DNA of 53,206 nucleotides. It comes from Ferruginibacter sp. (GTDB lineage: Bacteria > Bacteroidota > Bacteroidia > Chitinophagales > Chitinophagaceae). Below the pieces are notes generated by a model, which saw only the letters and a list, made by a program, of their open reading frames with translations, searched no databases and had not been told where the DNA came from. Where the stretch lies: the NCBI GenBank assembly GCA_036169975.1, contig JAVHOI010000121.1, positions 1 through 53,206 on the forward strand, in the 5' to 3' direction. Positions 1-50,895 of the stretch are shown here, piece after piece (positions within the stretch are counted from its first letter, which is position 1; every line of letters starts with the position of its first letter). The position numbers and the translations under genes were made by a program.

Positions 1-238
1 ATTTTACTCTACTAAGGTTTGAGCAAGTTCACTGTTTTACCCCTTGCGAAGTATAATTATCTGCCTTATCCATTTATTTGAATTACTATGGTTGTCTTGC
101 TAAAGTATGGAGAGACTTTCGGGCATTGAATTTACTCAACCCAACCTCCCGAAAAATCGCATTGGTGTTAAGTTAATTTTAATAAAATTTTCTTTAAACC
201 TTTGCTACTGTATATTATCTTCTTTCTACCAAAATATC

Positions 239-392: not shown

Positions 393-463
393 CAAAAATG
401 GTACATACTATTTTTAAATCAGCAACTATTTACTTTCTTTCCCTGATAATTATTGATGTTTCA

Positions 464-498
464 CCATTCTTAATTCTTAATTTTTAATTCTTAATTTA
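464..498. repeat. Tandem heptamer array (TAATTCT-like)
   Basis: taattct taatttt taattct taattta at 471-498, overlapping the stop codon. Confidence 0.6.
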
Positions 499-3400
499 TC
501 TGGGATAATACGCCCGGTATATTGAATCGGGCATTAGGGTTTTTCCTTTTGATATAAGGTCATTTTTTTGCTTAAATCCTGCGAAAGCAGCCTTCAGCGT
601 AGCTTTCATTGCAGGATCGGAGTCAGGTTCCTCATCCATATTTTTTGCCAATTTAAATAATGTTTCGTCATTCAGGTGGTAATCGCCCATGATAAAATCA
701 ATAAGATTGCTTTTTGTTTGCTTCATGGCGGTTGCATGGATATTGCGGAAATTATGCGCTGTGTCCAATCCACTTCCTACCCAGCTTGCCAATGACGGCA
801 ACTTAAGATTGAAATTATTTTTCAGGTAAGTCAATAAACTCGGCGTTATATCAACATGCGAAGAAATGGATTCAAATTTTTCGGATCTTTTTAATAATGG
901 CGAGTAAATAATCAGTGGCACATGATACCGGTCTATTTTAGTTGACATGGGTATTTCGGGCATCCGGTGATCGCCTGTTATCAGGAAGATGGTATTTTTA
1001 AAACCAGGCTTAGCCCGGTAATTATTGATAAACGATCTTATGGCATCATCGGCATACAGGATAGATGCATATTGATGATCGTATTTTCTATGTTCGCTCT
1101 TTTGGTTTTCAGAAAAATTTAATTGGCTCATCCGTTGTTCAACCTGAGTCAGGTAATGTTGCTGCTCGTTTACCAGGAACGGGCTATGGGTTGCCACGGT
1201 AAGCACTACCTGTAAAGATGGCTTTCCACCTGTCTGTTCATCCTGCTTATCCAGTACATGCCTGAATAATTCCTTATCACCATATCCCCATGAAAAACCA
1301 TTGTTCTCCGGAAGCCTTGGATAATCCGGGGGAAAGGTTTTTATATCATAAATACCATCTATTTTTTGCTTTTGTAAAAACAGCGCCATGTTATCGAAGG
1401 TGGCATCTCCGCCATAATAAAAAGAAGTATGATAACCATTCGATTTTAAGGTACTCATCAGCGAAAGATGAGCAGGCATTTGATCACCAAACTCATTGAA
1501 CCCGCTGCTGCCAAAAGGCAATGAACCTAACAGCGATGGCAATACCGCAAAAGTGCGGCCTCCATTGCTTAAAAAATTCTCCCAATATAAACTATGCTTA
1601 CTTAGCGAATCGAGAAAGGGTGTAAAGCTGCCGAGGTAAGCATTATCGTTGGTAAAGGCACGGCCTAATCCTTCAACCAGCACTATCACAATATCAGGTG
1701 GGGTAGTATCCCTGTTAAAGAATGTAGTTAATACATCGGCAGTATTATCCCTGTGCAAAAAGGGATAGTTGGCTTCATCTACATAATCAAACCCCTTATT
1801 TTTTTCTACTGGCAGGTTTATTGTTTCGGTTGATTTTGGAAAAAAATGATCATAGGATGAAGCGATAAAATAATTGAGTTTGTTCTTTGCGAGGTTACCC
1901 GCATATTCATCATGGATGTTAAATGTGGTAGCGGAAAAAATACCAGTTATTATCCAGGTAACTGCTATGATGCAGGCAGTAAGATTTATCCATTTGGCGG
2001 CTGCTTTAAACCTGGGGCTAACCCAATTATAAATGGCGAGTAAGCCCAGCGTTACTACGCTGATACCCACCACAATACCAGTATTAATTCCTCCGGAAGC
2101 GCCAACTGTTTGACGGATGTCTTTCATTGAATACCCATACAGGTCGGCTCCAAGCGGTACAAAGGAAAGACTGAAATATTGCATCAGTGCAAGGGAAACG
2201 AGGGTAACAAAAATGCTAAGGCTAATGGTAACAATATCCGCCAGCCGTTTATTGGCCAAAAACAATATGGTGTATAAAATGGCAAATACCAGATTTATTT
2301 TTAGAAAAAATGCGAGGTCATTCAATAATGAAACCAGAAATATATAAGAAGGTTGCCCCGGATATTGGTGAACAACGCCGTTATAAATAAAATCCGCTAC
2401 CCTTAGCAATACAATCATCATCAACCAGCCTGCTGCAATGGACAGGTACGAATAAAAGCCAGTCTTTAGCTTTGTTGCAAGCGAAATGTTTTCTGTAACT
2501 TCTCCCTCCCGCTGTGCACTAAACCCAAGCCTTGTCATTTCGCCCCAGCTATTTTTTTTGAGCAGCAAATCAATGTTACCCCGTATGGCCGACCATACCA
2601 CAAAGGGATGAAAACAGAAGGGTTCAATTAATGCGGTTAATATCAGTTTAGGCACTTCGCCCTTTTTTTTATATTGATTGAAAGTAAGAACTTCCATCAA
2701 AATAGCGAACATGGAATATAACCAGCCAAAGGTTAAAACAAAGCCAAGTAATGCGAAGAAAAAAGGCCAGTTAACAACTCCGATTATGGCAAAAAAAACA
2801 AAACCTAACATGCCAATGAACTCAATAATGGGCGCCAGAAATTCGAAAAAGAACCAATAGGGATAGCTAAGCATTCCCAACAGGCCATACCGCGGATTGA
2901 AGAAAAGAATTCGGTGAATTTTTAATGTTTCAACTGTACCCCTTGTCCACCGGTTTCGTTGACGGCCTAAAATTTTATAGGTAGCGGGCGCTTCCGTCCA
3001 GCACAAAGGATCAGGAATATAGGCGACTTTATAGCGCATTTTATTTTCTTCCATGTAGCGGCGCATACGCACTATAAGTTCCATATCTTCTCCCACCGTA
3101 TTGTGATTATATCCACCGGCCTTAATGACGATCTCCCGGTCAAAAGCGCCAAAAGCGCCCGATATTATCAGTAACCCGTTTAATCTGCTCCAGGCCATGC
3201 GCCCCAGCAAAAAGGCCCGGATATATTCAAGTGTTTGTACGCGGGGTAAAAATTGCTTCGGTAAATTCACATCTAAAAGGCGGCCATTTTGAATGACGCA
3301 GGAATTGGCGATTCTAACTACTCCTCCGGTGGCGATAACCCTTTTATTAGTTTCTTCAATAAAAGGTTTTACCAGTTTTAACAAGGCATCCTGCTCCAAT

Positions 3401-3924
3401 ATACAATCTACATCTATGCAAACTAAATATTGGTTGCTTGCCAGGTTGATGCCGGTATTGAGGGCATCCGCCTTGCCACCATTAACCTTGTCTATTACAA
3501 TAAGTTTTTTGTAAACGGAATTTCTGCTTTTATAAATTGCTTTTATTTGTTTTGCGGGAATATGGACATAGTATAATAAGTGAACTTTTTCCAGATCGTA
3601 AGCCTCTATTAATTTTTGCATGGAATCATCCTTGCTGCCGTCATTAATTACTATCAGTTCAAGCTGGTTGTAATGGATACTTAATAATGACCGTACATTT
3701 TCAATAATATTGGCTCCTTCATTGTAAGCCGGCGCCAGTATGCTTACAGAAGGTGCGTAATTGGAAGATGCCAGCAGGTTATAATCAGTGAAACTGCTTT
3801 TACGCAGATATTTCCTTGTTTCACCAATTGAATAAAGGCCGATAAAAATGTAAGATGTAAGCAGGCTTACCGAATATATTAATATTCCGTAGCTGAAAAG
3901 GTCAAATAAAATTATTTTCCACAT
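496..3924 (-). CDS. Fusion of a processive GT2 glycosyltransferase (IcaA/PgaC-like) and an LtaS/sulfatase-like phosphotransferase
   Basis: N-terminal half has PAYNE, NDGSKD, GGKADALN, DVD, GED and QRNRW motifs plus TM helices. C-terminal half has about 5 TM helices, then VEGLG, GGRT, THSPF and TGDH motifs of the LtaS/alkaline phosphatase superfamily. Confidence 0.88.
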   Translation of the reverse strand: MWKIILFDLFSYGILIYSVSLLTSYIFIGLYSIGETRKYLRKSSFTDYNLLASSNYAPSVSILAPAYNEGANIIENVRSLLSIHYNQLELIVINDGSKDDSMQKLIEAYDLEKVHLLYYVHIPAKQIKAIYKSRNSVYKKLIVIDKVNGGKADALNTGINLASNQYLVCIDVDCILEQDALLKLVKPFIEETNKRVIATGGVVRIANSCVIQNGRLLDVNLPKQFLPRVQTLEYIRAFLLGRMAWSRLNGLLIISGAFGAFDREIVIKAGGYNHNTVGEDMELIVRMRRYMEENKMRYKVAYIPDPLCWTEAPATYKILGRQRNRWTRGTVETLKIHRILFFNPRYGLLGMLSYPYWFFFEFLAPIIEFIGMLGFVFFAIIGVVNWPFFFALLGFVLTFGWLYSMFAILMEVLTFNQYKKKGEVPKLILTALIEPFCFHPFVVWSAIRGNIDLLLKKNSWGEMTRLGFSAQREGEVTENISLATKLKTGFYSYLSIAAGWLMMIVLLRVADFIYNGVVHQYPGQPSYIFLVSLLNDLAFFLKINLVFAILYTILFLANKRLADIVTISLSIFVTLVSLALMQYFSLSFVPLGADLYGYSMKDIRQTVGASGGINTGIVVGISVVTLGLLAIYNWVSPRFKAAAKWINLTACIIAVTWIITGIFSATTFNIHDEYAGNLAKNKLNYFIASSYDHFFPKSTETINLPVEKNKGFDYVDEANYPFLHRDNTADVLTTFFNRDTTPPDIVIVLVEGLGRAFTNDNAYLGSFTPFLDSLSKHSLYWENFLSNGGRTFAVLPSLLGSLPFGSSGFNEFGDQMPAHLSLMSTLKSNGYHTSFYYGGDATFDNMALFLQKQKIDGIYDIKTFPPDYPRLPENNGFSWGYGDKELFRHVLDKQDEQTGGKPSLQVVLTVATHSPFLVNEQQHYLTQVEQRMSQLNFSENQKSEHRKYDHQYASILYADDAIRSFINNYRAKPGFKNTIFLITGDHRMPEIPMSTKIDRYHVPLIIYSPLLKRSEKFESISSHVDITPSLLTYLKNNFNLKLPSLASWVGSGLDTAHNFRNIHATAMKQTKSNLIDFIMGDYHLNDETLFKLAKNMDEEPDSDPAMKATLKAAFAGFKQKNDLISKGKTLMPDSIYRAYYPR

Positions 3925-3972: not shown

Positions 3973-5010
3973 TTAGCTATTATAAACCTTTTGAAGATAC
4001 AAAACAGTTTTGTTTGCAGCCAACTTTATATCTACATCTTTATCGTACTGTAGTGGCTTTAAAAAGGGGAGATCCTGATATGAGCCGGTTTGCATAAATT
4101 CCTTTATGATGCAAAGCCGGTTATTTTTATCAGGTTCACCGGCAAATTGCGAATTCAACTCCGTGGCAGCGGCATTGGAAGGTATTTGTCCCAGACATAA
4201 TATGGCTTCTTTTCGAACCATCTCATTGGGATGGCTCAGGCATTTTACCACATCATCATGAAATTCGATGGCATGTTGTTCACTTATCAGTTTTAACGAA
4301 AACTCCACTACGGAATCATTGGAAGAATTTAACCAGTTTATAATTCCGTTATCTCCGGTGATGGGCTGGTGGGCCAGAAGTTGTAATAAATTCAACTGAT
4401 GCCACCCGGAAAGCGGATAAGAAAGTGTTTTAAAAAAATAAAGGCCCTTATATCCCTGCAAACGAACCATAGCCGTTTGCGCTTCCATACGTACCTTATT
4501 ATCCTTATGGTTGGTAAGTTCTAATATTTTTTCAATGTGTGCAATCTGTTTCATAGCCGCTAACTCCTGTATTCCCTTTGCTTTAATATGCCATCTTTTG
4601 GCTGCTATGCGCTTCAATGATATCTTTTGAAGCTTTAACTGATTGTAAATCCTTTCCACGTTTTCACCTGATACTCCACTTAAACTTTTTTTAACTTTCA
4701 TCAGGCTGCTTAGCAATACTTTTTTTGCGAAATTGCTACGTAATAAAAGTTCAATCTTTGCTGGTAAAGGAAATTTGTGATAGGCTACATTGTTATTTTC
4801 AAGTATAATATCCATTATCCACTCTTCAAGTTTGCCCGCAATCACAATTTTTTTTCTACGAATACTTTTTTTATGCAATTTAATCACCAGCATGCTAATG
4901 ACAAGTATCAATCCGACAAAGGAAAAAAAAATTATCGCCGCATAAAGATACTCCGTTCGCAGAAAGGCGACTTTATTAAGAAAAAATAATTTGTAAGGAA
5001 GTATAGGCAC
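3973..5010 (-). CDS. HEAT-repeat protein with N-terminal TM helix
   Basis: Hydrophobic N-terminal helix; HEAT-like units (LTNHKDNKVRMEAQTAM, LSHPNEMVRKEAILCLGQI); GTG start uncertain. Confidence 0.8.
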   Translation of the reverse strand: MPILPYKLFFLNKVAFLRTEYLYAAIIFFSFVGLILVISMLVIKLHKKSIRRKKIVIAGKLEEWIMDIILENNNVAYHKFPLPAKIELLLRSNFAKKVLLSSLMKVKKSLSGVSGENVERIYNQLKLQKISLKRIAAKRWHIKAKGIQELAAMKQIAHIEKILELTNHKDNKVRMEAQTAMVRLQGYKGLYFFKTLSYPLSGWHQLNLLQLLAHQPITGDNGIINWLNSSNDSVVEFSLKLISEQHAIEFHDDVVKCLSHPNEMVRKEAILCLGQIPSNAAATELNSQFAGEPDKNNRLCIIKEFMQTGSYQDLPFLKPLQYDKDVDIKLAANKTVLYLQKVYNS

Positions 5011-5155: not shown

Positions 5156-5524
5156 TTATGCAGCCACCAATGCGGCAAAACGCATTACTCGTAAAGACAA
5201 TTCATTTGGACTGAATGGCTTTGTGATGAAGTCATCCGCTCCAAGATTAAAAGCCTCTAAAACCACGTTTTCCTGCCCCATTGCTGATAATACAATAACG
5301 GATATTTTTTTTTCGAGTTGGTTTTTTATAAAACCAAGAATCTCAAGCCCGGATGTATAAGGCATCATAATATCGGTAATTACCAGGTCAATTTCATGGT
5401 CTTTTATGAGTTGTATCGCATCGCGGCCATTGCTGGCGGTAATTACATCATGGCCATCTCTTTTAAGTTTTAACTCCATTGTTTTTAACATGATGGGTTC
5501 ATCTTCCGCTAATAATATTTTCAT
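5156..5524 (-). CDS. Single-domain response regulator (receiver only)
   Basis: MKILLAEDE, ITDIMMP phospho-Asp, ITKPF; 122 aa with no output domain. Confidence 0.92.
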   Translation of the reverse strand: MKILLAEDEPIMLKTMELKLKRDGHDVITASNGRDAIQLIKDHEIDLVITDIMMPYTSGLEILGFIKNQLEKKISVIVLSAMGQENVVLEAFNLGADDFITKPFSPNELSLRVMRFAALVAA

Positions 5525-5563: not shown

Positions 5564-5920
5564 TTAATTATCAATCTCTTTCAAATGCAATTCCAGGGCT
5601 GCTTTTAGCTGATCAAATTCATATCGTGCTTCCTGTACAAGCTGGTCAAGCCAGCTAATGCCCTCTCCTGATTTTGCTGTAATTTCTATTTTTTCCAAAA
5701 TGCTGAATAAGGTATTTGCCTGTAGCATGCCTGTACTGCTTTTTAATTTATGGGCCGTTTTATATACCGACTCCTGATCGCCCTCATCAAAGGATTGCTT
5801 CATTATTTCCAGGTCAATATGCGTGTCTTTAATGTATAAAACTATTACCTCAATTGTAAAATTATTATCATCCATCTGTTCCAGGAAGCTGAGGTCAAAC
5901 AATTTTTGTTCCGTAATCAT
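5564..5920 (-). CDS. Hpt phosphotransfer protein
   Basis: AHKLKSS Hpt motif, FDLSFL N-terminus, 118 aa helical. Confidence 0.88.
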   Translation of the reverse strand: MITEQKLFDLSFLEQMDDNNFTIEVIVLYIKDTHIDLEIMKQSFDEGDQESVYKTAHKLKSSTGMLQANTLFSILEKIEITAKSGEGISWLDQLVQEARYEFDQLKAALELHLKEIDN

Positions 5921-6303: not shown

Positions 6304-8280
6304 ATGGAACCATTGGAAAATAGTATTTCAATTCTCCTAATAGAAGATAATGCCGGCGATCAGGTATTGCTGGAAGCCCATCTGGCGAATACTAATTTGT
6401 CAATAGGGAAAATTACCATTTCATCCACACTCGCGGAGGGTATCAGCTATTTGCGCCGGGAGTCTTTCTCCTTAATATTTCTGGACTTCTTTTTAACAGA
6501 CAGTACTGGGTTGGAGGCTTACATCAAATTGTCTAAAATAAATTCAAAGGTCCCCGTAATTATTTTATCGGGCCTGTCAGATACCTCACTTTCACTAAAA
6601 GCTATTTCATTGGGTGCTCAGGATTTTTTATTGAAAGGAGGCTACGATGCACAATCACTCGAAAAATCCGTACGGTACAGCATTGAAAGAAAAAAGAATA
6701 TCGAATTACTGAAGGAAAACAATGAACGGTATGATATCATATCGAAAGCCACAAATGATATCATCTGGGACTGGAACCTGGTTACTGATAAAGTAAAATG
6801 GATAGGCCAGGGCTTAAAAAATTATTTACCCCCGGATATGGCAGCGGAAGATATCCGTGATGATTTCTGGGTGAGTGGTTTGCATGCCGATGAAAGAAAA
6901 AAAGTTGTTGACAGCCTTTACAAAACAATCGCTTCGGGAGCAAATTCCTGGGAAAGTGATTATCGCTTTTTGAGAAGCGATGGCGGGTACGCCCATATAA
7001 ATTCAAGGGCTTACGTTATTAAAAATGAGGATCAGAAAGCCATCCGCATGATTGGTTCCATGCAGGATATTACCGACAGGAAAAATGCGGAACTTGAAGC
7101 CCAAAAAGCAAGGCTTGAGGCTGAGGAAGCCAGGAAAACCCAGGAGCAATTCCTGGCAAATATGAGCCATGAAATAAGGACACCTATGAATGGCGTAATA
7201 GGCATGACCCAGCTATTAGCCGGTACGGAATTAAATAAAGAGCAAAGAGAATTTGTAGAAATTATTAAAGAATCGGCAGGCAACCTGTTGGTGATCATCA
7301 ATGATATACTTGACCTTACCAAAATGGTTTCGGGAAAAATAATCATTGATAAAGTAGATTATGTATTTGCTGATGTGGTAAAGAACAGCATTCAGATCAA
7401 CAGGTTTAAAGCTGAAGAAAAAGGCATTTTACTAAAAACAGCGATTGATAAAAATATACATCCTGTTTTGTCGGGAGACCCATTCAGATTGAACCAGATA
7501 TTGGTGAACCTGATTAGCAATGCCATTAAGTTCACGGAGAAAGGTGAAGTAAATGTAAGTGTGAATTTGCTGGAAGAAGATGAAGAAAGAGTAACCCTGG
7601 AATTTTGCATACAGGATACCGGAATTGGCATTGAAGAAGATAAGCTGGAAGACGTGTTTGAACGATTTATCCAGGCTTCAGGCGCCACTACAAGAAAGTA
7701 TGGAGGTACCGGGCTTGGCCTCACCATTACCAGGCAACTGATTGAACTCCAGGGAGGCTCGGTACAATTAAAAAGTAAATTAGGCATTGGAAGTACATTT
7801 ACATTTTTTCTGAAAATAATAAAAGGAAATGCCGGAACGCCTGTTTCTGTTATTATGAATGCGGCGGATAGCCAACAATTACAATCGCTTGCCGGAGTAA
7901 AAATTCTTTTGGTAGAAGATAATCTCATAAATCAAAAAGTCGCAGTAAAGATGTTGACAAATCAGGGCGCTAAAGTAGCGATAGCCAATAATGGTTTGGA
8001 AGCGATTGAGATGCTCAGGGAAAAGGAATATGATATTATTCTGATGGATATCCAGATGCCTGAAATGGATGGGTACCAAGCTACGAGGTTTATCAGGAAG
8101 GAGTTGGACGATCCAATCAGCAAAACCCCCATCATCGCCATGACAGCATCCGCCCTTACTTCCGAAAAAGACAAATGCCTGAATGCAGGCATGGATAATT
8201 ATATTACCAAGCCCTTTCAGGCAAAGGAATTATTTGAAAAAATATTATTGCAACTTGAAAAGCCAGCCACTTCAGTTTAA
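6304..8280 (+). CDS. Cytoplasmic hybrid histidine kinase (REC-PAS-HisKA-HATPase-REC)
   Basis: LLIEDN...FLD receiver; IIWDWN...DITDRK PAS/PAC; SHEIRTP H-box; NAIKFT, DTGIG and GGTGLGL boxes; C-terminal LMDIQMP receiver; no TM segment. Confidence 0.93.
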   Translation: MEPLENSISILLIEDNAGDQVLLEAHLANTNLSIGKITISSTLAEGISYLRRESFSLIFLDFFLTDSTGLEAYIKLSKINSKVPVIILSGLSDTSLSLKAISLGAQDFLLKGGYDAQSLEKSVRYSIERKKNIELLKENNERYDIISKATNDIIWDWNLVTDKVKWIGQGLKNYLPPDMAAEDIRDDFWVSGLHADERKKVVDSLYKTIASGANSWESDYRFLRSDGGYAHINSRAYVIKNEDQKAIRMIGSMQDITDRKNAELEAQKARLEAEEARKTQEQFLANMSHEIRTPMNGVIGMTQLLAGTELNKEQREFVEIIKESAGNLLVIINDILDLTKMVSGKIIIDKVDYVFADVVKNSIQINRFKAEEKGILLKTAIDKNIHPVLSGDPFRLNQILVNLISNAIKFTEKGEVNVSVNLLEEDEERVTLEFCIQDTGIGIEEDKLEDVFERFIQASGATTRKYGGTGLGLTITRQLIELQGGSVQLKSKLGIGSTFTFFLKIIKGNAGTPVSVIMNAADSQQLQSLAGVKILLVEDNLINQKVAVKMLTNQGAKVAIANNGLEAIEMLREKEYDIILMDIQMPEMDGYQATRFIRKELDDPISKTPIIAMTASALTSEKDKCLNAGMDNYITKPFQAKELFEKILLQLEKPATSV

Positions 8281-43196: not shown

Positions 43197-44744
43197 CTAT
43201 CTTAATCCTACATGATCAACATATACCACACCTGAAAACCCTGCAGATTGAAGAACAATTTCTTTTAAAGGATTTGGGCTTCCAAGAGCTGATAAATTCA
43301 GGCTGTACGTAGTCCATTCTCCGCCTACGATGGTTACTGGATATGCACTACCCCAACCACCATTGATTACCACATTTAATTTTTTACCGGCTGTAGCGAG
43401 CATGCCAAATACGGAAAATTCAAGTTTAGTATAACTTCCTGTGGCAGGTCCTCCATCATTGTGAAAGGTGATACCTTCGTAGCCACCAACACCATAAGTA
43501 ACTTTAATTGATTTATTGCCCTGGCGAACATTTTCGGTACTGTTGAAATCCCTTGTTGCCCATGACCAATCCTGAAACCCATTTTGTAAAGCATCGGTAT
43601 ATATGGCATAAGGAAAATCAGCCAATGGCGGAAGGCCGCCAATAAAATCTAACACCTGTGTTGATTCTACAGTGAGCGTGGAATTGGCTACCGATAATAT
43701 TATTTTTCCTTTTAGTGCACCAGCCGGAGCTTTTACTACAATTTGAGTAGCGGACTGGCTTACGAAGGCAGTGACTGGCGCAACAATCCCTGTGAAGGAC
43801 ACGCCGGTTACAAGGTTAAGATTAGTACCTGTAATGGTAAGGTTACCTTCCTGTGCAATAGGGTTGGGGGCAAGTGCCGTAACGGCGGGCAAGCTCAATA
43901 CTAAATCCTGTGTTGATTGTGTTTTAACCTGTGAAGCCGCAATCAAGGTTATTTTTCCCATACTTGCTGCTGCAGGAACCTTCACTACAATTTGTGTAGC
44001 AGACTGGCTTACAAATAAAGTAACAGGTGTGGCCTGACCCTGAAATAATAAGCCAGTTGCCAGGTCGAGATCTGTTCCGGTAAGGGTGAGGTTAGCAGCA
44101 TGCAATACCGGATTAGGAGTCATACCGGTTATCATTGGCAATGTAACATTCAGGGTGCTATCAGTTTCTATTACCAGGGGTTTTGTTCCAGTGGTTGACA
44201 GAAATAGTGTTCCGCTTTGGGCTGTTAAAGGTACTTTTACTACCAGTTCGGTTAATGATTGACTTACAAAAGTTGTTTCCGCTAAATTTTTGGCAAATGT
44301 TACAACTTTTACCCAATTCATAAACTGTCCTTTGATGGTAATGTTTTCACCAGGACGGGCTTTTGAAGTGATGGAAGTGATTATTACCGGGACCAGAAAA
44401 TTAATTTTAGTTTTGGATTTGATATCCCCATCCGGCGTTTTCAATGTTACATATCCTTCCTGTGTGGATTGAGGAACAATGATTAAAATCAACTCGGCAG
44501 TTTTAGAAATAAATGCTGAAGCCGGAACGATGGCTCCTGTCAAATCAATTTCGGTAACCTTATCCAGGTTGTTTCCAAAAAAACGGAGGGTATCTCCATG
44601 TTTGGCCCCTGTAGGACCAAAATTTAATAATTCCACTTTGCCCGAATTCGCAACAGTGTTTTTTTTACAGGAGGTCAATTGCCCGATAGCCAATACAAAG
44701 CACATCAGATAAAGTAATGGTTTATTAAATATTATTTTTGTCAT
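43197..44744 (-). CDS. PUL surface lipoprotein with 4 IPT/TIG-like repeats and a C-terminal CBM-like domain
   Basis: Lipobox LTSC-KK; repeated FVSQSATQIVVK units; IYTDALQNGFQDWSW...VYVDHV beta-sandwich. Confidence 0.8.
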   Translation of the reverse strand: MTKIIFNKPLLYLMCFVLAIGQLTSCKKNTVANSGKVELLNFGPTGAKHGDTLRFFGNNLDKVTEIDLTGAIVPASAFISKTAELILIIVPQSTQEGYVTLKTPDGDIKSKTKINFLVPVIITSITSKARPGENITIKGQFMNWVKVVTFAKNLAETTFVSQSLTELVVKVPLTAQSGTLFLSTTGTKPLVIETDSTLNVTLPMITGMTPNPVLHAANLTLTGTDLDLATGLLFQGQATPVTLFVSQSATQIVVKVPAAASMGKITLIAASQVKTQSTQDLVLSLPAVTALAPNPIAQEGNLTITGTNLNLVTGVSFTGIVAPVTAFVSQSATQIVVKAPAGALKGKIILSVANSTLTVESTQVLDFIGGLPPLADFPYAIYTDALQNGFQDWSWATRDFNSTENVRQGNKSIKVTYGVGGYEGITFHNDGGPATGSYTKLEFSVFGMLATAGKKLNVVINGGWGSAYPVTIVGGEWTTYSLNLSALGSPNPLKEIVLQSAGFSGVVYVDHVGLR

Positions 44745-44786
44745 TGTGTTTATTTTTATAGTGTAACAACTTTGAAATCTGGTGCC

Positions 44787-45935
44787 TTACTTCTTGATAA
44801 ATTTTGGAACAACCCTGAAATTATCAAAAGACATATCACAATCAAGCGCACCATCTCCATGAAATAACAACCTGCACCAATATCCGGTTGAGCTTAAAAC
44901 AAGTGGGGCTCCATAGCTGGCTGCCACTTCTTCAAATGGAATTACTATTGTTTGCCATTTTCCTTTTGTATCGTAGGGTGGTTTCCATTGATATGCATTG
45001 TTATTTTCTGCCAGTAAGCCAACATTAATTTTCAGTACATTGGCGTTGTATGGTTTCATGGTATTCAATTCAAATTTTAGATTGTAATCAGCCGGTTTTA
45101 AGATAGCTTCATCCGGTACATTCTTGCTGATAGCACCCATGGCACTAGCAGGTCCGCCTGCTACTTCTGTCCACTGCCATCCGCCAATTTCTTTTTTAAC
45201 CCTGATATAATTTCCATTGATTGAAGGAGGGTCTCCGGCACCCGGATTGCTAACTACAAAAGATGCATTCCACCAACCGGTAAACGGATCGCTGCTAATA
45301 AATATATTGCGGTTATCCCTAAACCAAAAATCAGATTTAGTTTCACCAAAATTTGTTTTAACGGTAACTTGTCCGGGCTGTACACCGACGGGTATCCTCA
45401 CTTCGATAATCTTATCCTTTACCGTTACCAGTTCTCCAACTACGCCACCAGCAAAGGTTACAGTAAGCGGCATGTAAAAGAAGTCACCTCTTATAGTAGC
45501 AACATCCCCCGTAAGCACATACTCACTTGCCATGCCGGTTACAACAGGTTCGCTTATCTGAACCTTGAAATCGTATAACAAGGAATCGCCACTGGAAAAA
45601 TAAATCTTTAGTTTATTGGTGATGGTTAAAGGAATTGGTGTAGGAACACTTACCAGGATGGAATTATTGGTAATATAGGTTGACGTTAAATTAGCACGTT
45701 GATCATTAAACCAAATATCTACTGCATTCTGAAGATTTTCTCCAACGATTGCTATTAACTGTCCCTGGTGGGCAGCTACCAATAATGAATCGGAAGATTC
45801 AGGGCTGGTTATCCGCACATATTTAATTCGTGGCACACCATTGTTCGGAAGGCTGTCTTTCTTACAGGATGCAAACATACCAATCATGGCTATCGCCATC
45901 ATCAGTAATAATCCATTTATATATTTTGCTTTCAT
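44787..45935 (-). CDS. Surface glycan-binding lipoprotein (SGBP-B-like)
   Basis: Lipobox FASC-KKD; Ig-like domains; Trp-rich C-terminal domain ending FDNFRVVP; directly after susD. Confidence 0.8.
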   Translation of the reverse strand: MKAKYINGLLLMMAIAMIGMFASCKKDSLPNNGVPRIKYVRITSPESSDSLLVAAHQGQLIAIVGENLQNAVDIWFNDQRANLTSTYITNNSILVSVPTPIPLTITNKLKIYFSSGDSLLYDFKVQISEPVVTGMASEYVLTGDVATIRGDFFYMPLTVTFAGGVVGELVTVKDKIIEVRIPVGVQPGQVTVKTNFGETKSDFWFRDNRNIFISSDPFTGWWNASFVVSNPGAGDPPSINGNYIRVKKEIGGWQWTEVAGGPASAMGAISKNVPDEAILKPADYNLKFELNTMKPYNANVLKINVGLLAENNNAYQWKPPYDTKGKWQTIVIPFEEVAASYGAPLVLSSTGYWCRLLFHGDGALDCDMSFDNFRVVPKFIKK

Positions 45936-45971
45936 TTTATTTTAAATAAAGTGTATGAAATATGGTTTGGC

Positions 45972-47693
45972 TTATGGATAGTCCACAGCAGGTTTAGACA
46001 AGTTAGGAGCCTGGCTTTTTTCCTGTGCAGGTATTGGGAGTAAAAAGTTTCCTGAACTGGCATTTATTTTTCTGTTGGTTGTTGCCCAGGTTGTTTTCTT
46101 AATTGTCCAGAAGGTAGGGTTAGGAAAAGCATCCGGAGCGATATTATATAAACCCCTGTCCTGTGAATTTAAAATGGAATAAGCCTTTTGAGGATTGTAA
46201 TAATGAAGGCTTACCAAATCGTACCAACCCATTCCTTCCATGGCAAACTCGATAAATCTTTCTTTCAAAATAACATCCAGCGTAATCGGATGTGGAACAC
46301 CAGTAACAGGATCGGTAATTAAGTAAGGTGCTAAGCCACATCTGGTATGTACTTTATTGAAATATTCCAATGCTGTTGCATCACTTGTAGAAGTATTATT
46401 ACCAAGCGATGCTTCAGTATAAATAAGGTACATCTCCGCTAATCTTAACATGTAGGTATTATTAGGATAACGTTGTGCTTCAACAGTAAATCCCAAATCT
46501 TCAGACTTGCCAACTACGTATTTTTTTATACTTGCAAAATTTACATCACCAGCGTTATAAGGAAAAATCAATTTTTGATTTACCCCATTCAGTTTTTGTG
46601 TTATCTCAGGATAACTTGCGCCTGGTAACATAAACGTTGCTTTTAGTCTTTGGTCAAGTGTGCGGCCTTTTAACATGGTGTCACCAAATGCCTCCATACC
46701 ATCGTATTGACTAAGCATCCACCAGGTAGCGCCTTTATCGCCGCCCCATCCTTCAACACTGATATCGGGGCTGTAATTCAAATAAGATGGAGTGCTGTTT
46801 CCTACGCCATAACCAGGATTTCCAGGCAATGCCACCCATTGCAATTCAAATAAAGATTCAGCGCCATTGTCGTAAGGATATTTAAACAAGTCAGCATAAT
46901 TTGCTAATAAACTACGGCCACTATTAACTATTACCCGTTGTGCATAATATTTGGCACTATCTAAATAAACCTGATTTCTAACACCACCTGTAGATTCGAC
47001 CCCGGCTCTTGTCAGGTAAAAGCGGGCTAACATTCCTTCTGCACTCCATTTAGAAATCCTTCCGGTTGCGAGGGGCGTTTCAGGAAGGTCTGCCGCTACG
47101 GCACGCATTTCTCTTGTTATAAAACGCCAAACACTTTTTGAGGTGTTTTTATTAATGGAAGTATCATTCAATAAGGCGATATTATTTTCTATTATTGGCA
47201 CATCACCCCAATTCATCGTTAAATAACGATAAGCTACTGCTCTCATGAACCTTGCCTCAGCGATAGCTATTTTTTTTACCTGCGGTGAAACTGCCGGACC
47301 TGCATATTTGTTTATATTGAAAATAGTAAGGTTAGACTGACCTACCACAATAAAGAATGAACGCCAGGCAGCGCCATTTTCGCCTGTAACATCTGTTGTA
47401 TTAAATAGTACATTCCCCCGGTCATTGTAGGCCGAAAACGCTGTCCCTGCCCTAAAATCACCCAGGTTATAAGAGGCTTTGTCATTGTAATCGAACCATA
47501 CTTTGCTATACAACAAACTGGTAGCAGACAACACCTGTTCATCTGATTGATAAAAACTTGCATCAACTATTGAATCCGTTGGTGGCTTTTCCAAAAAATT
47601 CTTTTTACAGCCAGATGACAGAATCGCAATTGGAATAATAAATCCAAGCAAAAAAATCAGGCTGTTTCTTTTTATGTTCTTTATATTCTTCAT
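45972..47693 (-). CDS. susD: SusD/RagB family lipoprotein
   Basis: Lipobox SSGC-KK; AEARFMRA..Y, RLAEMYLIYTEA, ERFIEFAMEG..WYDL, LPIP. Confidence 0.93.
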   Translation of the reverse strand: MKNIKNIKRNSLIFLLGFIIPIAILSSGCKKNFLEKPPTDSIVDASFYQSDEQVLSATSLLYSKVWFDYNDKASYNLGDFRAGTAFSAYNDRGNVLFNTTDVTGENGAAWRSFFIVVGQSNLTIFNINKYAGPAVSPQVKKIAIAEARFMRAVAYRYLTMNWGDVPIIENNIALLNDTSINKNTSKSVWRFITREMRAVAADLPETPLATGRISKWSAEGMLARFYLTRAGVESTGGVRNQVYLDSAKYYAQRVIVNSGRSLLANYADLFKYPYDNGAESLFELQWVALPGNPGYGVGNSTPSYLNYSPDISVEGWGGDKGATWWMLSQYDGMEAFGDTMLKGRTLDQRLKATFMLPGASYPEITQKLNGVNQKLIFPYNAGDVNFASIKKYVVGKSEDLGFTVEAQRYPNNTYMLRLAEMYLIYTEASLGNNTSTSDATALEYFNKVHTRCGLAPYLITDPVTGVPHPITLDVILKERFIEFAMEGMGWYDLVSLHYYNPQKAYSILNSQDRGLYNIAPDAFPNPTFWTIKKTTWATTNRKINASSGNFLLPIPAQEKSQAPNLSKPAVDYP

Positions 47694-47703
47694 TTTCTGA
47701 TTT

Positions 47704-50700
47704 TTAAAAATTTACATTTAAGCTAAAGGTGTAAATAGGAGTTAAAGGGTAACGGCCATTATCCAGACCAATGGCCTGGTTGCCAGTATTTGCATTCTGA
47801 CCTACATACGATCCAACCTCAGGATCAAATCCTTTGTAACCTGTAATGGTAGCAGCATTCTGTGCGCCGATGGTGGCTCTTACTCCCCTCACTAATTTTT
47901 GCCTTGCCATTAGTGAGGCAGGAAGGTTATAAGACAGAGAGATGTTTTTAAGCCTTAAAAAGGATCCTTTTTCTACCCATTTACTGCTGGTGGTTCCATA
48001 ATTATTATCATTGGCTATTTGCGAATTGGATAAGCGGGGAACATCAGTACCCGCATTTATAATCATTGGCATCCCGTTTTTATCAAGTCCTAATTTGGCA
48101 TAGTCCATGGCGGTAACCAATAAATTGCGACTGGTATAAATAGTAGAAGATTTATTGTTGATTTTAGCGATATGGTTATAAATATCATTACCAAAAGTAC
48201 CGGTAATCAATATGCTTAAATCAAAACCTTTGTAGGAAAAATTGTTGGTGAACCCGCCAAAAAGTTTTGGCCAGGGGTTACCAATATTTGTTTCATCGTA
48301 AAAGTTAATAATGCCATCAGGTACACCGTTCGGGCCACTGATATCTTTATATTTTACATCACCAATCCATACTCCTGCTGCTTCGTCCGTTGGTAGCCGA
48401 TTACCGTTATTATCAACACGTACGGCGCTTTTATTAATTTCATCCACGGATTGAAACAATCCTTCCGCAATATAACCACGAAATAACCAGGGCGCCTGTC
48501 CTACAGCAGAACGTTGTGTCCAGTTATCTAACCACCAGGAAGTTCGTTCAACAAAGGCGGCATCAGAATAAAATTTCTTGATTTTAGTATCAAACCTTGA
48601 GAGATTTAAACTCGATTCCCATTTAAAATCTTTAGTTCGAACATTGGTAGTATTTATTGTAATGCCCCAGCCTTTGGTTTGTAAGGCTCCAATATTTACT
48701 ACGGGGTTTCCAACTGCACCTACACCACTTGTTCCCATATACCATGCTAAAGGATTATCCATTAGTAAATTGTTGCTGTTTTTAATATAGTAATCAGCAT
48801 CAATTGAAATTCTGTTTTTTAGAAACCCAATGTTCAGACCTATATTATTGGTTTTGGTTTCTTCCCATTTTAATGCCGGGTTACCATATCTGCCCGGCAG
48901 GAAACCAGTACCTAAATCTGAGGGATCCGAATTCAATGGGGAATAAATGCCTCCGCTTCCCTGGTTACCGGTAAGCCCGGTTTCAAACCGCAATTTTAGT
49001 TCGCTTATAGCTGGTACCTGAAAGAATTTTTCCTGCGAAACTCTCCATGCCGCTGATGCGGAAGGAAATGTGCCCCATCTGTTTTCTGATCCAAAATTGG
49101 ATGAACCATCTTTTCTGATAGTACCCGTAACTATATACCGATTGTCGTAATTATAGTTAATCCTGCCCAAATACGATTCCATTGCCCATGGACCCGAACC
49201 ACCACCATTAGTACCGCTAAGGGCGGCACCTGCATTGATATCAAAAATATTGTTGGTAAGATAACCGGATCTCCTTGCACTGATATTTTGCCATTTTGAT
49301 TCCTGAGATTCATGGCTTGCCATTGCACCGAAATTGTGTTTTCCAATTTGTTTGTTATACTCTAATAGCTGATTCCAGTTCCAATAAGTGCTCATACCAA
49401 CATTGTTACTTAACGTGGCGGAGGTATTGATAGCCCAACCTATAGCATAAGTAGGATTGAAGTACAAAGAATTGGAGTAATTAATATCGGTATTAAATGA
49501 GGTTCTTAAGGTAAGTCCCTTTGCCAGATTCAATCCAACATTTAATCCACCTAAAAATTGTCTTCTTCTGTTGGTATTTGTTCTTAAACTGGCTATCGCT
49601 ATTGGATTTACGGGTGCATATACGTTTGCGCCATTGATGATATCACCTCCACCCCAGGTGCCATTCAAATTTTTAACAGGCACCTGCGGCGTTAATTGTA
49701 AGGCATCTGATATTACACCTTCTGAGCTGGTGGTCAGTTTTTCATTGGTTTGATTAAAACTAAGGTTGGCGCCAATAGTGATCCATTCTCTTGGCTTATT
49801 ATCAAGGTTTATCCTAAAGCCATACCTGTCAAACCCTGAACCAAGTGCAACTCCATCCTGTTTTAAGTATTCGCCCGACATATAATAAGTGGTAGTATTG
49901 CTGCCGCCACTCAAACTAAGCTGGTGTTTTTGCATGGCGGCATTGCTAAATAATTCATTCTGCCAGTCCGTACCTTGTCCTAATAATGAAGGGTCTAAAA
50001 ATTCAATTGGCGTTGTTCCTCCAGCTAATGCATGGTATTCTTTCACCATTTGTGCATATTGAGGTAAATTCATAACACTCAAATGTTTTGGAGGCGTCTG
50101 GATATTATATTGGAAACCATAATTAAATTTTGTTTCTCCCGCTTTACCACGTTTTGTGGTAATTAAAAGAACTCCATTGGTGGCACGTGATCCATAAATA
50201 GCGGTAGCGGAAGGCCCCTGCAACACCTGTATATCTTCAATATCAGCAGGATTTAACCCGGCTAAAGGATTTGAAGAATTTGTAGTACCACCACCAAATA
50301 CCTGAACGCCATCAATAACATAAAGCGGTTCCGTATTTCCATTAATAGAACTGATACCACGAATGGCTACAGAAATGCCACCTCCCGGCTGCCCCGAGTT
50401 TTGGGTAACATAAACACCTGCCGCCCTTCCCTGGAACGCTTGCTCAATCGTGGTGTTCACCGTTTTTTCCATATCCTTGGCTGATACGGATGTTTGGGCA
50501 GTGGTAAGGTTAACCTTCCTGGCTTTACCATATCCAATTACTACCACATCGTCCAGTTTTGATTGCTCCTCGGTAATTGCAATATTCATGAAATTTGAAG
50601 TGCCTACTTTAATTTCCCTTTTCTGGTAACCTATATAAGAAACAACAAGCACATCACCTGTTTTAGCCTCTATATTAAAGGCGCCCTCATTATCGGCAAG

Positions 50701-50895
50701 TGTTCCAATATTGGTTCTTTTATTGATTATGGATGCTGAAGGCAGCGGTTTCCCTGTTTCAGAAGAAACCTTACCATTTATCTTTCGGTCCACCGCCTGC
50801 GCATAAACACCATTGCAGGCCAAAAGGCTGCCAAAGATTGCCCATAAAAACAGGGCTTTGAGGTTCATTTTTTGTTTATTTTTTTTCATATACAA
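47704..50895 (-). CDS. susC: SusC/RagA TonB-dependent transporter
   Basis: LDDVVVIGYG, PLYVIDG, NPADIEDIQVL, AIYGSRATNGVLLITTKRG, LKWEET, terminal VNF; start may be a few codons later. Confidence 0.95.
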   Translation of the reverse strand: MYMKKNKQKMNLKALFLWAIFGSLLACNGVYAQAVDRKINGKVSSETGKPLPSASIINKRTNIGTLADNEGAFNIEAKTGDVLVVSYIGYQKREIKVGTSNFMNIAITEEQSKLDDVVVIGYGKARKVNLTTAQTSVSAKDMEKTVNTTIEQAFQGRAAGVYVTQNSGQPGGGISVAIRGISSINGNTEPLYVIDGVQVFGGGTTNSSNPLAGLNPADIEDIQVLQGPSATAIYGSRATNGVLLITTKRGKAGETKFNYGFQYNIQTPPKHLSVMNLPQYAQMVKEYHALAGGTTPIEFLDPSLLGQGTDWQNELFSNAAMQKHQLSLSGGSNTTTYYMSGEYLKQDGVALGSGFDRYGFRINLDNKPREWITIGANLSFNQTNEKLTTSSEGVISDALQLTPQVPVKNLNGTWGGGDIINGANVYAPVNPIAIASLRTNTNRRRQFLGGLNVGLNLAKGLTLRTSFNTDINYSNSLYFNPTYAIGWAINTSATLSNNVGMSTYWNWNQLLEYNKQIGKHNFGAMASHESQESKWQNISARRSGYLTNNIFDINAGAALSGTNGGGSGPWAMESYLGRINYNYDNRYIVTGTIRKDGSSNFGSENRWGTFPSASAAWRVSQEKFFQVPAISELKLRFETGLTGNQGSGGIYSPLNSDPSDLGTGFLPGRYGNPALKWEETKTNNIGLNIGFLKNRISIDADYYIKNSNNLLMDNPLAWYMGTSGVGAVGNPVVNIGALQTKGWGITINTTNVRTKDFKWESSLNLSRFDTKIKKFYSDAAFVERTSWWLDNWTQRSAVGQAPWLFRGYIAEGLFQSVDEINKSAVRVDNNGNRLPTDEAAGVWIGDVKYKDISGPNGVPDGIINFYDETNIGNPWPKLFGGFTNNFSYKGFDLSILITGTFGNDIYNHIAKINNKSSTIYTSRNLLVTAMDYAKLGLDKNGMPMIINAGTDVPRLSNSQIANDNNYGTTSSKWVEKGSFLRLKNISLSYNLPASLMARQKLVRGVRATIGAQNAATITGYKGFDPEVGSYVGQNANTGNQAIGLDNGRYPLTPIYTFSLNVNF

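Follow-up and report, generated by a model that had tools for sequence, protein, structure and literature searches.

A recurrent fusion of a putative GT2 polysaccharide synthase with an LtaS-like transferase in Ferruginibacter and other genera

INTRODUCTION

In Escherichia coli, three copies of BcsG are recruited by the N-terminal domain of BcsA, and tethering BcsG to the synthase greatly raises phosphoethanolamine (pEtN) modification, according to the available part of PMC11379886; the accessible text of PMC8892547 gives Ser278 as the BcsG nucleophile and Glu442/His443 as ligands. For hyaluronan synthase (HAS), the portion of PMC11750622 at hand describes the WGxxxR gating loop as cytosolic and its Trp and Arg as needed for activity, and the excerpted text of PMC9131456 describes residue roles in the LtaS site, including the glycerophosphate contacts H347 and R356. 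Here, we report on a gene at positions 496..3924 (minus strand) of a 53,206-nt contig of Ferruginibacter sp. (JAVHOI010000121.1, assembly GCA_036169975.1; this whole stretch is referred to as the window), which encodes a family 2 glycosyltransferase (GT2) synthase and an LtaS-like transferase in one polypeptide of 1142 aa (P0001).

The arrangement resembles BcsA-BcsG, as far as the accessible text on that system goes, in coupling a GT2 synthase to a five-transmembrane (TM) headgroup transferase of the alkaline phosphatase fold, with export by a tetratricopeptide repeat (TPR)/barrel protein. However, the link here is covalent and 1:1 rather than made through three recruited BcsG copies, and the nucleophile position holds Thr with Glu/Asp/His ligands (LtaS type), unlike in BcsG. 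In fold, the GT2 half is nearer to HAS than to BcsA; it stops at the gating loop, without space for a PilZ domain, and its partners are HEAT, receiver (REC) and YaiO proteins instead of BcsB/C/E/F, with no GGDEF match. Like the lipoteichoic acid synthase LtaS, the primase LtaP and Vibrio VP1736 (3LXQ), the second half combines a five-TM domain with an outward-facing catalytic domain (Z 33-36), but unlike LtaS, it does not keep the H347/R356 contacts, occurs in a diderm host in which pgsA was not found, and has a GT2 synthase fused or adjacent. We take the GT2 half to resemble PgaC/IcaA in being a compact module that ends just after the W...R loop, in its QxxEY motif, and in its association with a TPR/barrel exporter analogous to PgaA; it differs in its score against that family (131 bits, cut-off 422) and in having an LtaS-like module instead of a deacetylase/PgaD. 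Class I hyaluronan synthases (CvHAS, XlHAS1) are the processive synthases that match best in fold (Z 28.9) and are similar in a W-G-x-x-x-R motif spaced like WGTSGR in the accessible part of PMC11750622, but they share only ~20% identity with the GT2 module, which carries GEDM instead of GDDR and has no helices after the loop.

A first-pass annotation of the window, made from the sequence alone, knew of no characterised example of this architecture, and we likewise found no description of the GT2-LtaS fusion or of the gene cassette around it in the literature searched. The architecture is real, recurrent and apparently undescribed.

RESULTS

One uninterrupted reading frame encodes both halves

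The gene runs on the minus strand from an ATG at 3924 to a stop ending at 496 with no interruption, while the plus-strand frame over the same interval is full of stops. The first-pass annotation had reported this ORF as intact without naming a strand, and every motif that it had listed (D and DxD, which read NDG and DVD here, and GED, QRNRW, VEGLG, GGRT, THSPF and GDH) was found in place. Its junction near 2520 is also correct, since WGEMTRLGF corresponds to residues 460-468 and its last codon ends at nt 2521. Pfam assigned GT2 families to residues 58-393 and Sulfatase (PF00884, 113 bits) to residues 743-1034, whereas no NCBIfam equivalog scored above its cut-off for the fusion protein; the best were PgaC_IcaA (131/422 bits), OpgB (43/572) and LtaS (42/970).

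The junction is spanned gap-free by contigs from three of the four sequencing runs (X2 and X4 of study P1; X5 of study P2), and the single listed difference, in X5, falls on nt 2520, where the Ser codon 469 begins, and makes no stop. Moreover, exact motifs of both halves were present in 115 of 119 non-self homologues among the best 120 of 3108; the remaining four comprise two full-length proteins without the exact TGDH pattern and two partial ones. These listed homologues are 54 to 83% identical and come from sources including Ferruginibacter, Puia, Hanamia, Ginsengibacter and Paradesertivirga. The junction-spanning contigs and the many fused homologues rule out an assembly artefact or a stop-loss in one assembly; the fusion is a real, recurrent architecture.

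An AlphaFold model of the fusion protein built from 95 fused sequences (pLDDT 88.7, pTM 0.64) places a linker between the halves (~aa 469-481; 2482..2520, minus strand), which is disordered at residues 471-478, where model confidence is low, is predicted to be cytoplasmic, and varies widely in length among homologues.

The GT2 half carries the motif set of processive synthases

The GT2 synthase module (aa 1-468; 2521..3924, minus strand), delimited by motifs, Pfam, model and fold search, consists in the model of an N-terminal TM helix, a GT-A domain, interface helices and two more TM helices. The D, DxD, (G/T)ED and QxxRW motifs of processive GT2 synthases (BcsA/HAS/CHS/PgaC type) are all present, as NDG (D95), DVD (171-173), GED (278-280) and QRNRW (322-326). 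Residues D95, D171, D173, D280, Q322, R323 and W326 are invariant in 79/79 aligned GT2 sequences, as is the QxxEY motif (Q230, E233, Y234), which we take to be linked with N-acetylhexosamine (HexNAc) synthases. The gating loop W460-G-x-x-x-R465 is conserved as well (W460 in 78, G461 in 79 and R465 in 76 of the 79). In the fold search, PcManGT (Z 29.7), a viral hyaluronan synthase (Z 28.9; root mean square deviation [rmsd] 3.1, 390 residues aligned) and BcsA (25.4) were recovered. Membership in the BcsA family was not supported (TIGR03030, 29 bits versus 699), and PilZ gave no Pfam match. Taken together, the best family match to PgaC/IcaA, the HAS-type loop and the QxxEY motif suggest a HexNAc backbone.

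The second half belongs to the LtaS/OpgB-like structural class

The membrane domain of the LtaS-like module (aa 482-694; 1843..2481, minus strand) shows five TM helices by model and alignment: five long helices lie at 482-663, with two short helices and a conserved YF-x5-PLGAD-x3-Y loop between the third and fourth. It is followed by an alkaline-phosphatase-superfamily catalytic domain (~aa 715-1142; 499..1782, minus strand), predicted to be periplasmic. Its catalytic positions, E751 (VEGLG), T791 (GGRT, nucleophile position), H913 (THSPF) and D985/H986 (GDH), align with E255, T300, H416, D475 and H476 of LtaS. All five are invariant in 36/36 fused sequences, and in the 34 split sequences they are kept in 32 (E751), 28 (T791, with Ser in the other 6), 32 (H913), 32 (D985) and 34 (H986), which gives 64 of 70 sequences with Thr at the nucleophile position. 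The closest folds to the catalytic domain were VP1736 (Z 36.3; rmsd 3.3, 388 residues aligned), LtaP (34.2), LtaS (33-34) and YejM/PbgA (30-31), with sulfatases at 25-28 (28.0 or less). Thus, the five-TM domain, the alkaline-phosphatase fold, the Thr nucleophile, the Glu/Asp/His ligands and the second His that characterise the LtaS/OpgB-like class are all present, in agreement with the earlier description of an LtaS-type domain with a full catalytic set and ~5 TM helices.

The protein nevertheless falls outside the individual families of this class. It scored 42 bits against 970 for LtaS (NF053595) and lacks counterparts of H347 and R356; for OpgB, scores were 43/572 (NF009027) and 35/574 bits (NF003000), and pgsA was not found; and BcsG is disfavoured by Thr rather than Ser in 64/70 sequences and by the HEAT/REC/YaiO neighbourhood. 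The C/S-x-P-x-R motif, which we assume to be the signature of formylglycine-dependent sulfatases, occurred in 0/70 sequences, which speaks against the plain sulfatase that the first-pass annotation had named among the outcomes that would refute its proposal.

With regard to topology, the loop that closes the GT2 module is cytosolic in HAS, so the junction would lie in the cytoplasm, and the five helices that follow would bring the second active site to the periplasmic side. The fusion is therefore predicted to be topologically coherent.

Fused and split forms alternate across lineages

The best 80 of at least 592 GTDB loci, found by using the LtaS-like half alone, comprised 36 fused loci, 37 split loci with a GT2 in the locus (including L124, where a fusion is broken), 6 truncated loci and 1 without a GT2 in view. 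Of the 74 informative loci, 73 had the GT2 fused to or within 7 kb of the LtaS-like half. All five informative Ferruginibacter loci were fused, so the possibility that close relatives carry only separate genes, raised earlier as a refutation of the fusion, fails; split forms are about as common overall, however, and fusion is one recurrent state of a wider cassette. Fused genes were found in at least 13 of 300 family genomes (two candidates scored per genome) and in four genomes of two other families. No close match was detected in 36 genomes that share the genus code of the window (best E 4e-44, paralogues); the cassette is thus patchy there.

Fused and split forms coexist within Pedobacter, Mucilaginibacter, Puia and Ginsengibacter. 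Among cultured strains, Paradesertivirga mongoliensis KCTC 52859 (L100) and Mucilaginibacter sp. UYCu711 (L132) carry the fused gene, and Terrimonas ginsenosidimutans (L099) carries the split form. The fused/split state changes 10 times on a quick GT2 tree (79 sequences), with at least 4 changes forced by starred branches, and 7 times on a FastTree of the LtaS-like half (70 sequences), with 6 forced. A single origin in one fused clade was rejected on the latter tree by the approximately unbiased test (p = 0.0003), which used 38 of the 70 sequences, hand-chosen after viewing the tree. Since the trees are unrooted, they do not distinguish fusions from fissions, but the split state of the most distant sampled lineages points to fusion on several occasions, perhaps with some reversals. 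Pairwise identity in one half tracks that in the other (Spearman 0.78 over 67 loci, with pairs not independent), and some fused proteins (P0020, P0078, P0120) join halves of differing ancestry.

Adjacent split genes are spaced by only -29 to +32 nt (20 pairs), so fusion would be easy. We rejected the idea that split and fused genes are generally connected by read-through or a recent stop-loss, as only 5 of these 20 pairs share a reading frame, which does not exceed one third.

The LtaS-like gene is optional. In 10/10 near-complete genomes with a cassette lacking it, no close subfamily member was found (the best matches, at 89 bits and 25-32% identity, were distant paralogues, or there was nothing), as expected of a decorating enzyme. 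Some cassettes without it (L084:7692-10666, minus strand, and others) encode a tandem pair of GT2 paralogues together with a long TPR-YaiO protein and a DUF4838 protein, which suggests a different polymer or modification route. In distant families (L055-L058, L064-L070, L088), we observed LtaS-like proteins of ~810-830 aa with C-terminal TPR repeats, and in locus L056 a GT2-LtaS-like protein of 1260 aa has a comparable extension at its C terminus.

A conserved cassette and regulatory genes surround the synthase

Directly upstream of the synthase lies a gene for a 345-aa protein with an N-terminal hydrophobic segment and HEAT repeats (3973..5010, minus strand), followed by Pfam-supported genes for a stand-alone REC protein (122 aa; 5156..5524, minus strand), an Hpt phosphotransfer protein (118 aa; 5564..5920, minus strand) and a divergent hybrid histidine kinase, REC-PAS-HisKA-HATPase-REC (658 aa; 6304..8280, plus strand), which is the probable signal input. 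No GGDEF domain was found in the genome. The first 55 nt of the window (1..55) overlap exactly with the end of contig C191 of the same genome (G000); look-alikes of this stretch occur elsewhere at ~90% identity, but only C191 matches exactly. This contig bears the genome's only YaiO-type TPR/beta-barrel gene (C191:1195-2445, plus strand), which would be convergent with the fusion gene, a layout seen directly in four Ferruginibacter loci (L093, L094, L095 and L097).

On the basis of 60 hand-picked neighbourhoods (family and phylum searches) and the best 80 GTDB loci, we defined a cassette of receiver, HEAT protein, GT2, LtaS-like enzyme, often a ~390-aa protein termed c5, and YaiO. Among 52 full-length loci, HEAT was present in 51, a YaiO/TPR match in 48 and c5 in 42. 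The combination of a GT2 synthase, a TPR scaffold and an outer-membrane beta-barrel, as in synthase-dependent exopolysaccharide secretion, is therefore present. No recurrent deacetylase or PgaD-like gene appeared in the 60 clustered neighbourhoods (ORFs of at least 90 aa).

The c5 protein is conserved and TM-anchored (L038:6843-8030, plus strand, and 25 other loci), with a fold of class I glutamine-amidotransferase-like domains as in GH42 enzymes, Agd3, PelA and NDST1 (Z 11-15); it had no Pfam match (one member scanned) and no meaningful NCBIfam or PDB sequence match. It was found in 64/95 YaiO-visible loci with an LtaS-like gene and in 1/10 without one, and may be the transferase's partner; it was not found in the 93%-complete Ferruginibacter genome. 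The idea that fusion makes c5 dispensable (missing in 17/38 fused and 13/55 split loci; Fisher p 0.04) was not supported, as the only four independent pairs gave no significant sign test.

Several further observations concern the genome and the survey. A second GT2 gene (G000:C304:3311-6802, plus strand; 1163 aa, 32% identity over the GT2 part) appears by eye to be a fusion of GH18-like, polysaccharide-deacetylase and GT2 parts, and its assembled 3' end may be disturbed. The cassette also occurs, with Bacteroidota-like proteins, in metagenome-assembled genome records titled Citrobacter freundii (L101) and Beijerinckiaceae (L149), which are more likely mislabelled or contaminated bins than cases of transfer. 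Right after the stop of the fusion gene (window 459-496), an AT-rich heptamer-like repeat (ttctaat/ttttaat) matches many contigs, including unrelated metagenome ones. A promoter scan gave counts at chance level (26 versus 22.6 +/- 4.9). Elsewhere in the window (43197-50895, minus strand), a SusC/SusD-like pair and two IPT/lipoprotein-like genes, with an AraC-type regulator upstream, form by eye an ordinary-looking polysaccharide utilisation locus.

Phosphatidylethanolamine is the favoured lipid donor

The genome's only two CDP-alcohol transferases are a PssA-like enzyme (101 bits, cut-off 107) and a BT1523-type phosphatidylinositol phosphate (PIP) synthase (397 bits, cut-off 350); Psd matches are also present, and two cultured relatives have phosphatidylethanolamine (PE) as their major polar lipid. 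The pgsA model scored under its cut-off in this genome and exceeded it in 0/5 fusion-bearing genomes, four of which showed a single weak match. In a pairwise alignment, LtaS H347 and R356 correspond to Y837 and M846. Since pgsA was not found and the glycerol-binding residues of LtaS are lost, pEtN is the likelier donor group. The first-pass annotation had allowed phosphoglycerol or pEtN; the latter is now favoured and the former less likely. As a judgement, we would assign ~60% to PE, ~25% to inositol/serine lipids or sphingolipids, and ~15% to phosphatidylglycerol (PG). The PIP synthase gene (L173:57-1971; G000:C98) lies near a fatty-acid-hydroxylase-like ORF, which suggests inositol (sphingo)lipids in this organism.

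DISCUSSION

We consider it reasonably probable (about 60%) that the GT2-LtaS fusion polymerises an exported glycan processively and decorates it with lipid-derived phospho groups in the periplasm. A one-chain enzyme that polymerises and decorates had been proposed in the first-pass annotation; its fusion, LtaS-like domain and exported-glycan context hold up, while phosphoglycerol has become the less likely donor. By analogy, the fusion may work like the pEtN-cellulose machine while standing outside the BcsA, BcsG, PgaC/IcaA, LtaS, OpgB and sulfatase families. In the proposed mechanism, the GT2 would elongate the glycan processively in the cytoplasm, likely from UDP-HexNAc, and pass the chain across the inner membrane, with the TM-HEAT partner perhaps completing or switching on its channel. 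T791, activated by the metal site E751/D985/H986, would attack a lipid, probably PE, releasing diacylglycerol and moving the headgroup to the emerging chain in the periplasm, and the TPR/YaiO barrel would export the chain. Control would be exerted by the kinase-Hpt-receiver relay and not by cyclic di-GMP, and the fusion would replace the non-covalent tether of BcsG on BcsA, fixing a 1:1 ratio. The full version of this scheme, in which an LtaS-lineage transferase, in bacteria apparently devoid of PG synthesis, has switched to PE and adds pEtN to a nascent HexNAc polymer, giving an undescribed zwitterionic surface glycan whose export by YaiO is controlled by the phosphorelay, and in which the fusion has arisen anew more than once, is tentative and clearly less probable than the general proposal.

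A number of observations weigh against this proposal or its details. In structure, the GT2 half matches PcManGT, a small mannosyltransferase, best, within 1 Z of hyaluronan synthase; the model shows only ~3 TM helices plus interface helices in this module; and PgaC_IcaA (TIGR03937), its best NCBIfam match (E 4e-38), reached just 131 of 422 bits. Therefore, neither sugar nor processivity is fixed, and the earlier description of a complete processive GT2 stands for the motif set and the loop but is tempered by the few helices. With a pTM of 0.64, the model does not fix how the halves are placed relative to each other. Both fold and sequence set the second half nearer to LtaS/LtaP, which are phosphoglycerol transferases, than to EptA or BcsG. 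At E<=1e-20, pgsA was matched in 0/101 family genomes, but the Bacteroides control was also without a match at this threshold, so a divergent PG route is possible, and the 93% completeness of the genome further limits the absence of pgsA; the inositol-lipid synthase offers an alternative donor route. Finally, a sister clade of ~810-aa LtaS-like proteins (~33% identity) occurs in 5/5 tested genomes without this GT2, and this lineage can therefore work without this synthase. These proteins carry a non-TPR C-terminal extension, and in 2 of the 5 genomes (L091:7562-13577; G139:C6:149804-155071) the gene is divergent from one for a different GT2 protein of ~1155 aa, possibly a second synthase-transferase pairing.

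Some of these points would fit a lipid-anchored product. In this case, the GT2 would synthesise a glycolipid, or a short oligosaccharide linked to a lipid, on which the LtaS-like domain would place or polymerise phospho-headgroups, and the outcome would be an envelope molecule resembling lipoteichoic acid or osmoregulated periplasmic glucans instead of a free exopolysaccharide. The PcManGT match, the few GT2 helices, the weak OpgB scores (NF009027, 43 bits; NF003000, 35 bits) and the action of LtaS and LtaP, the closest characterised folds, on a glycolipid anchor (PMC4192460, in the part available) agree with such a product. However, the GT2 half keeps the full processive motif set, including the WGxxxR loop essential in HAS, a TPR/barrel exporter accompanies it in 48/52 loci, and the cassette persists without the LtaS-like gene, which makes this explanation rather unlikely. 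Similar doubt applies, slightly more strongly, to the view that the enzyme decorates another envelope target (lipid A, lipopolysaccharide core, a sphingolipid or a protein glycan) or is a scaffold, the fusion being incidental between genes that are only co-regulated. Fusion is mutationally cheap given the short spacing of adjacent split genes (-29 to +32 nt, 20 pairs), YejM/PbgA is a close fold, the ~810-aa sister clade stands alone, and lineages have exchanged halves (P0020, P0078 and P0120). Yet the two genes are linked in 73/74 loci, including rearranged loci on opposite strands, fusions recur and are long retained in several families, and the intact catalytic set argues against a pure scaffold.

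Least probable of all, and in our view improbable, is hydrolase activity of the C-terminal domain, which as a sulfatase or phosphodiesterase would trim substrates or the polymer and transfer no headgroup. The Pfam label Sulfatase (113 bits), database names such as 'sulfatase-like hydrolase/transferase' and the sulfatase Z scores of 25-28 point that way, but the sulfatase motif is absent from all 70 sequences, 64 of them carry Thr where the nucleophile is expected, the membrane domain is a lipid-facing five-TM one, and LtaS-type folds score 5-8 Z units above sulfatases.

If synthesis and lipid-dependent decoration are indeed coupled in one chain, the cassette would specify a surface polymer that is widespread in Bacteroidota of soil and fresh water and whose chemistry is undescribed, and the fusion would offer a single polypeptide in which to reconstitute and image this coupling, for which E. 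coli needs the multi-subunit Bcs complex. The fused/split pairs within genera allow the effect of tethering on the degree of substitution to be tested. The system would also test how an LtaS-type site changes its headgroup donor, give the YaiO barrel family a cargo, and provide the first substrate for this clade's Gram-negative 'LTA synthase family' proteins.

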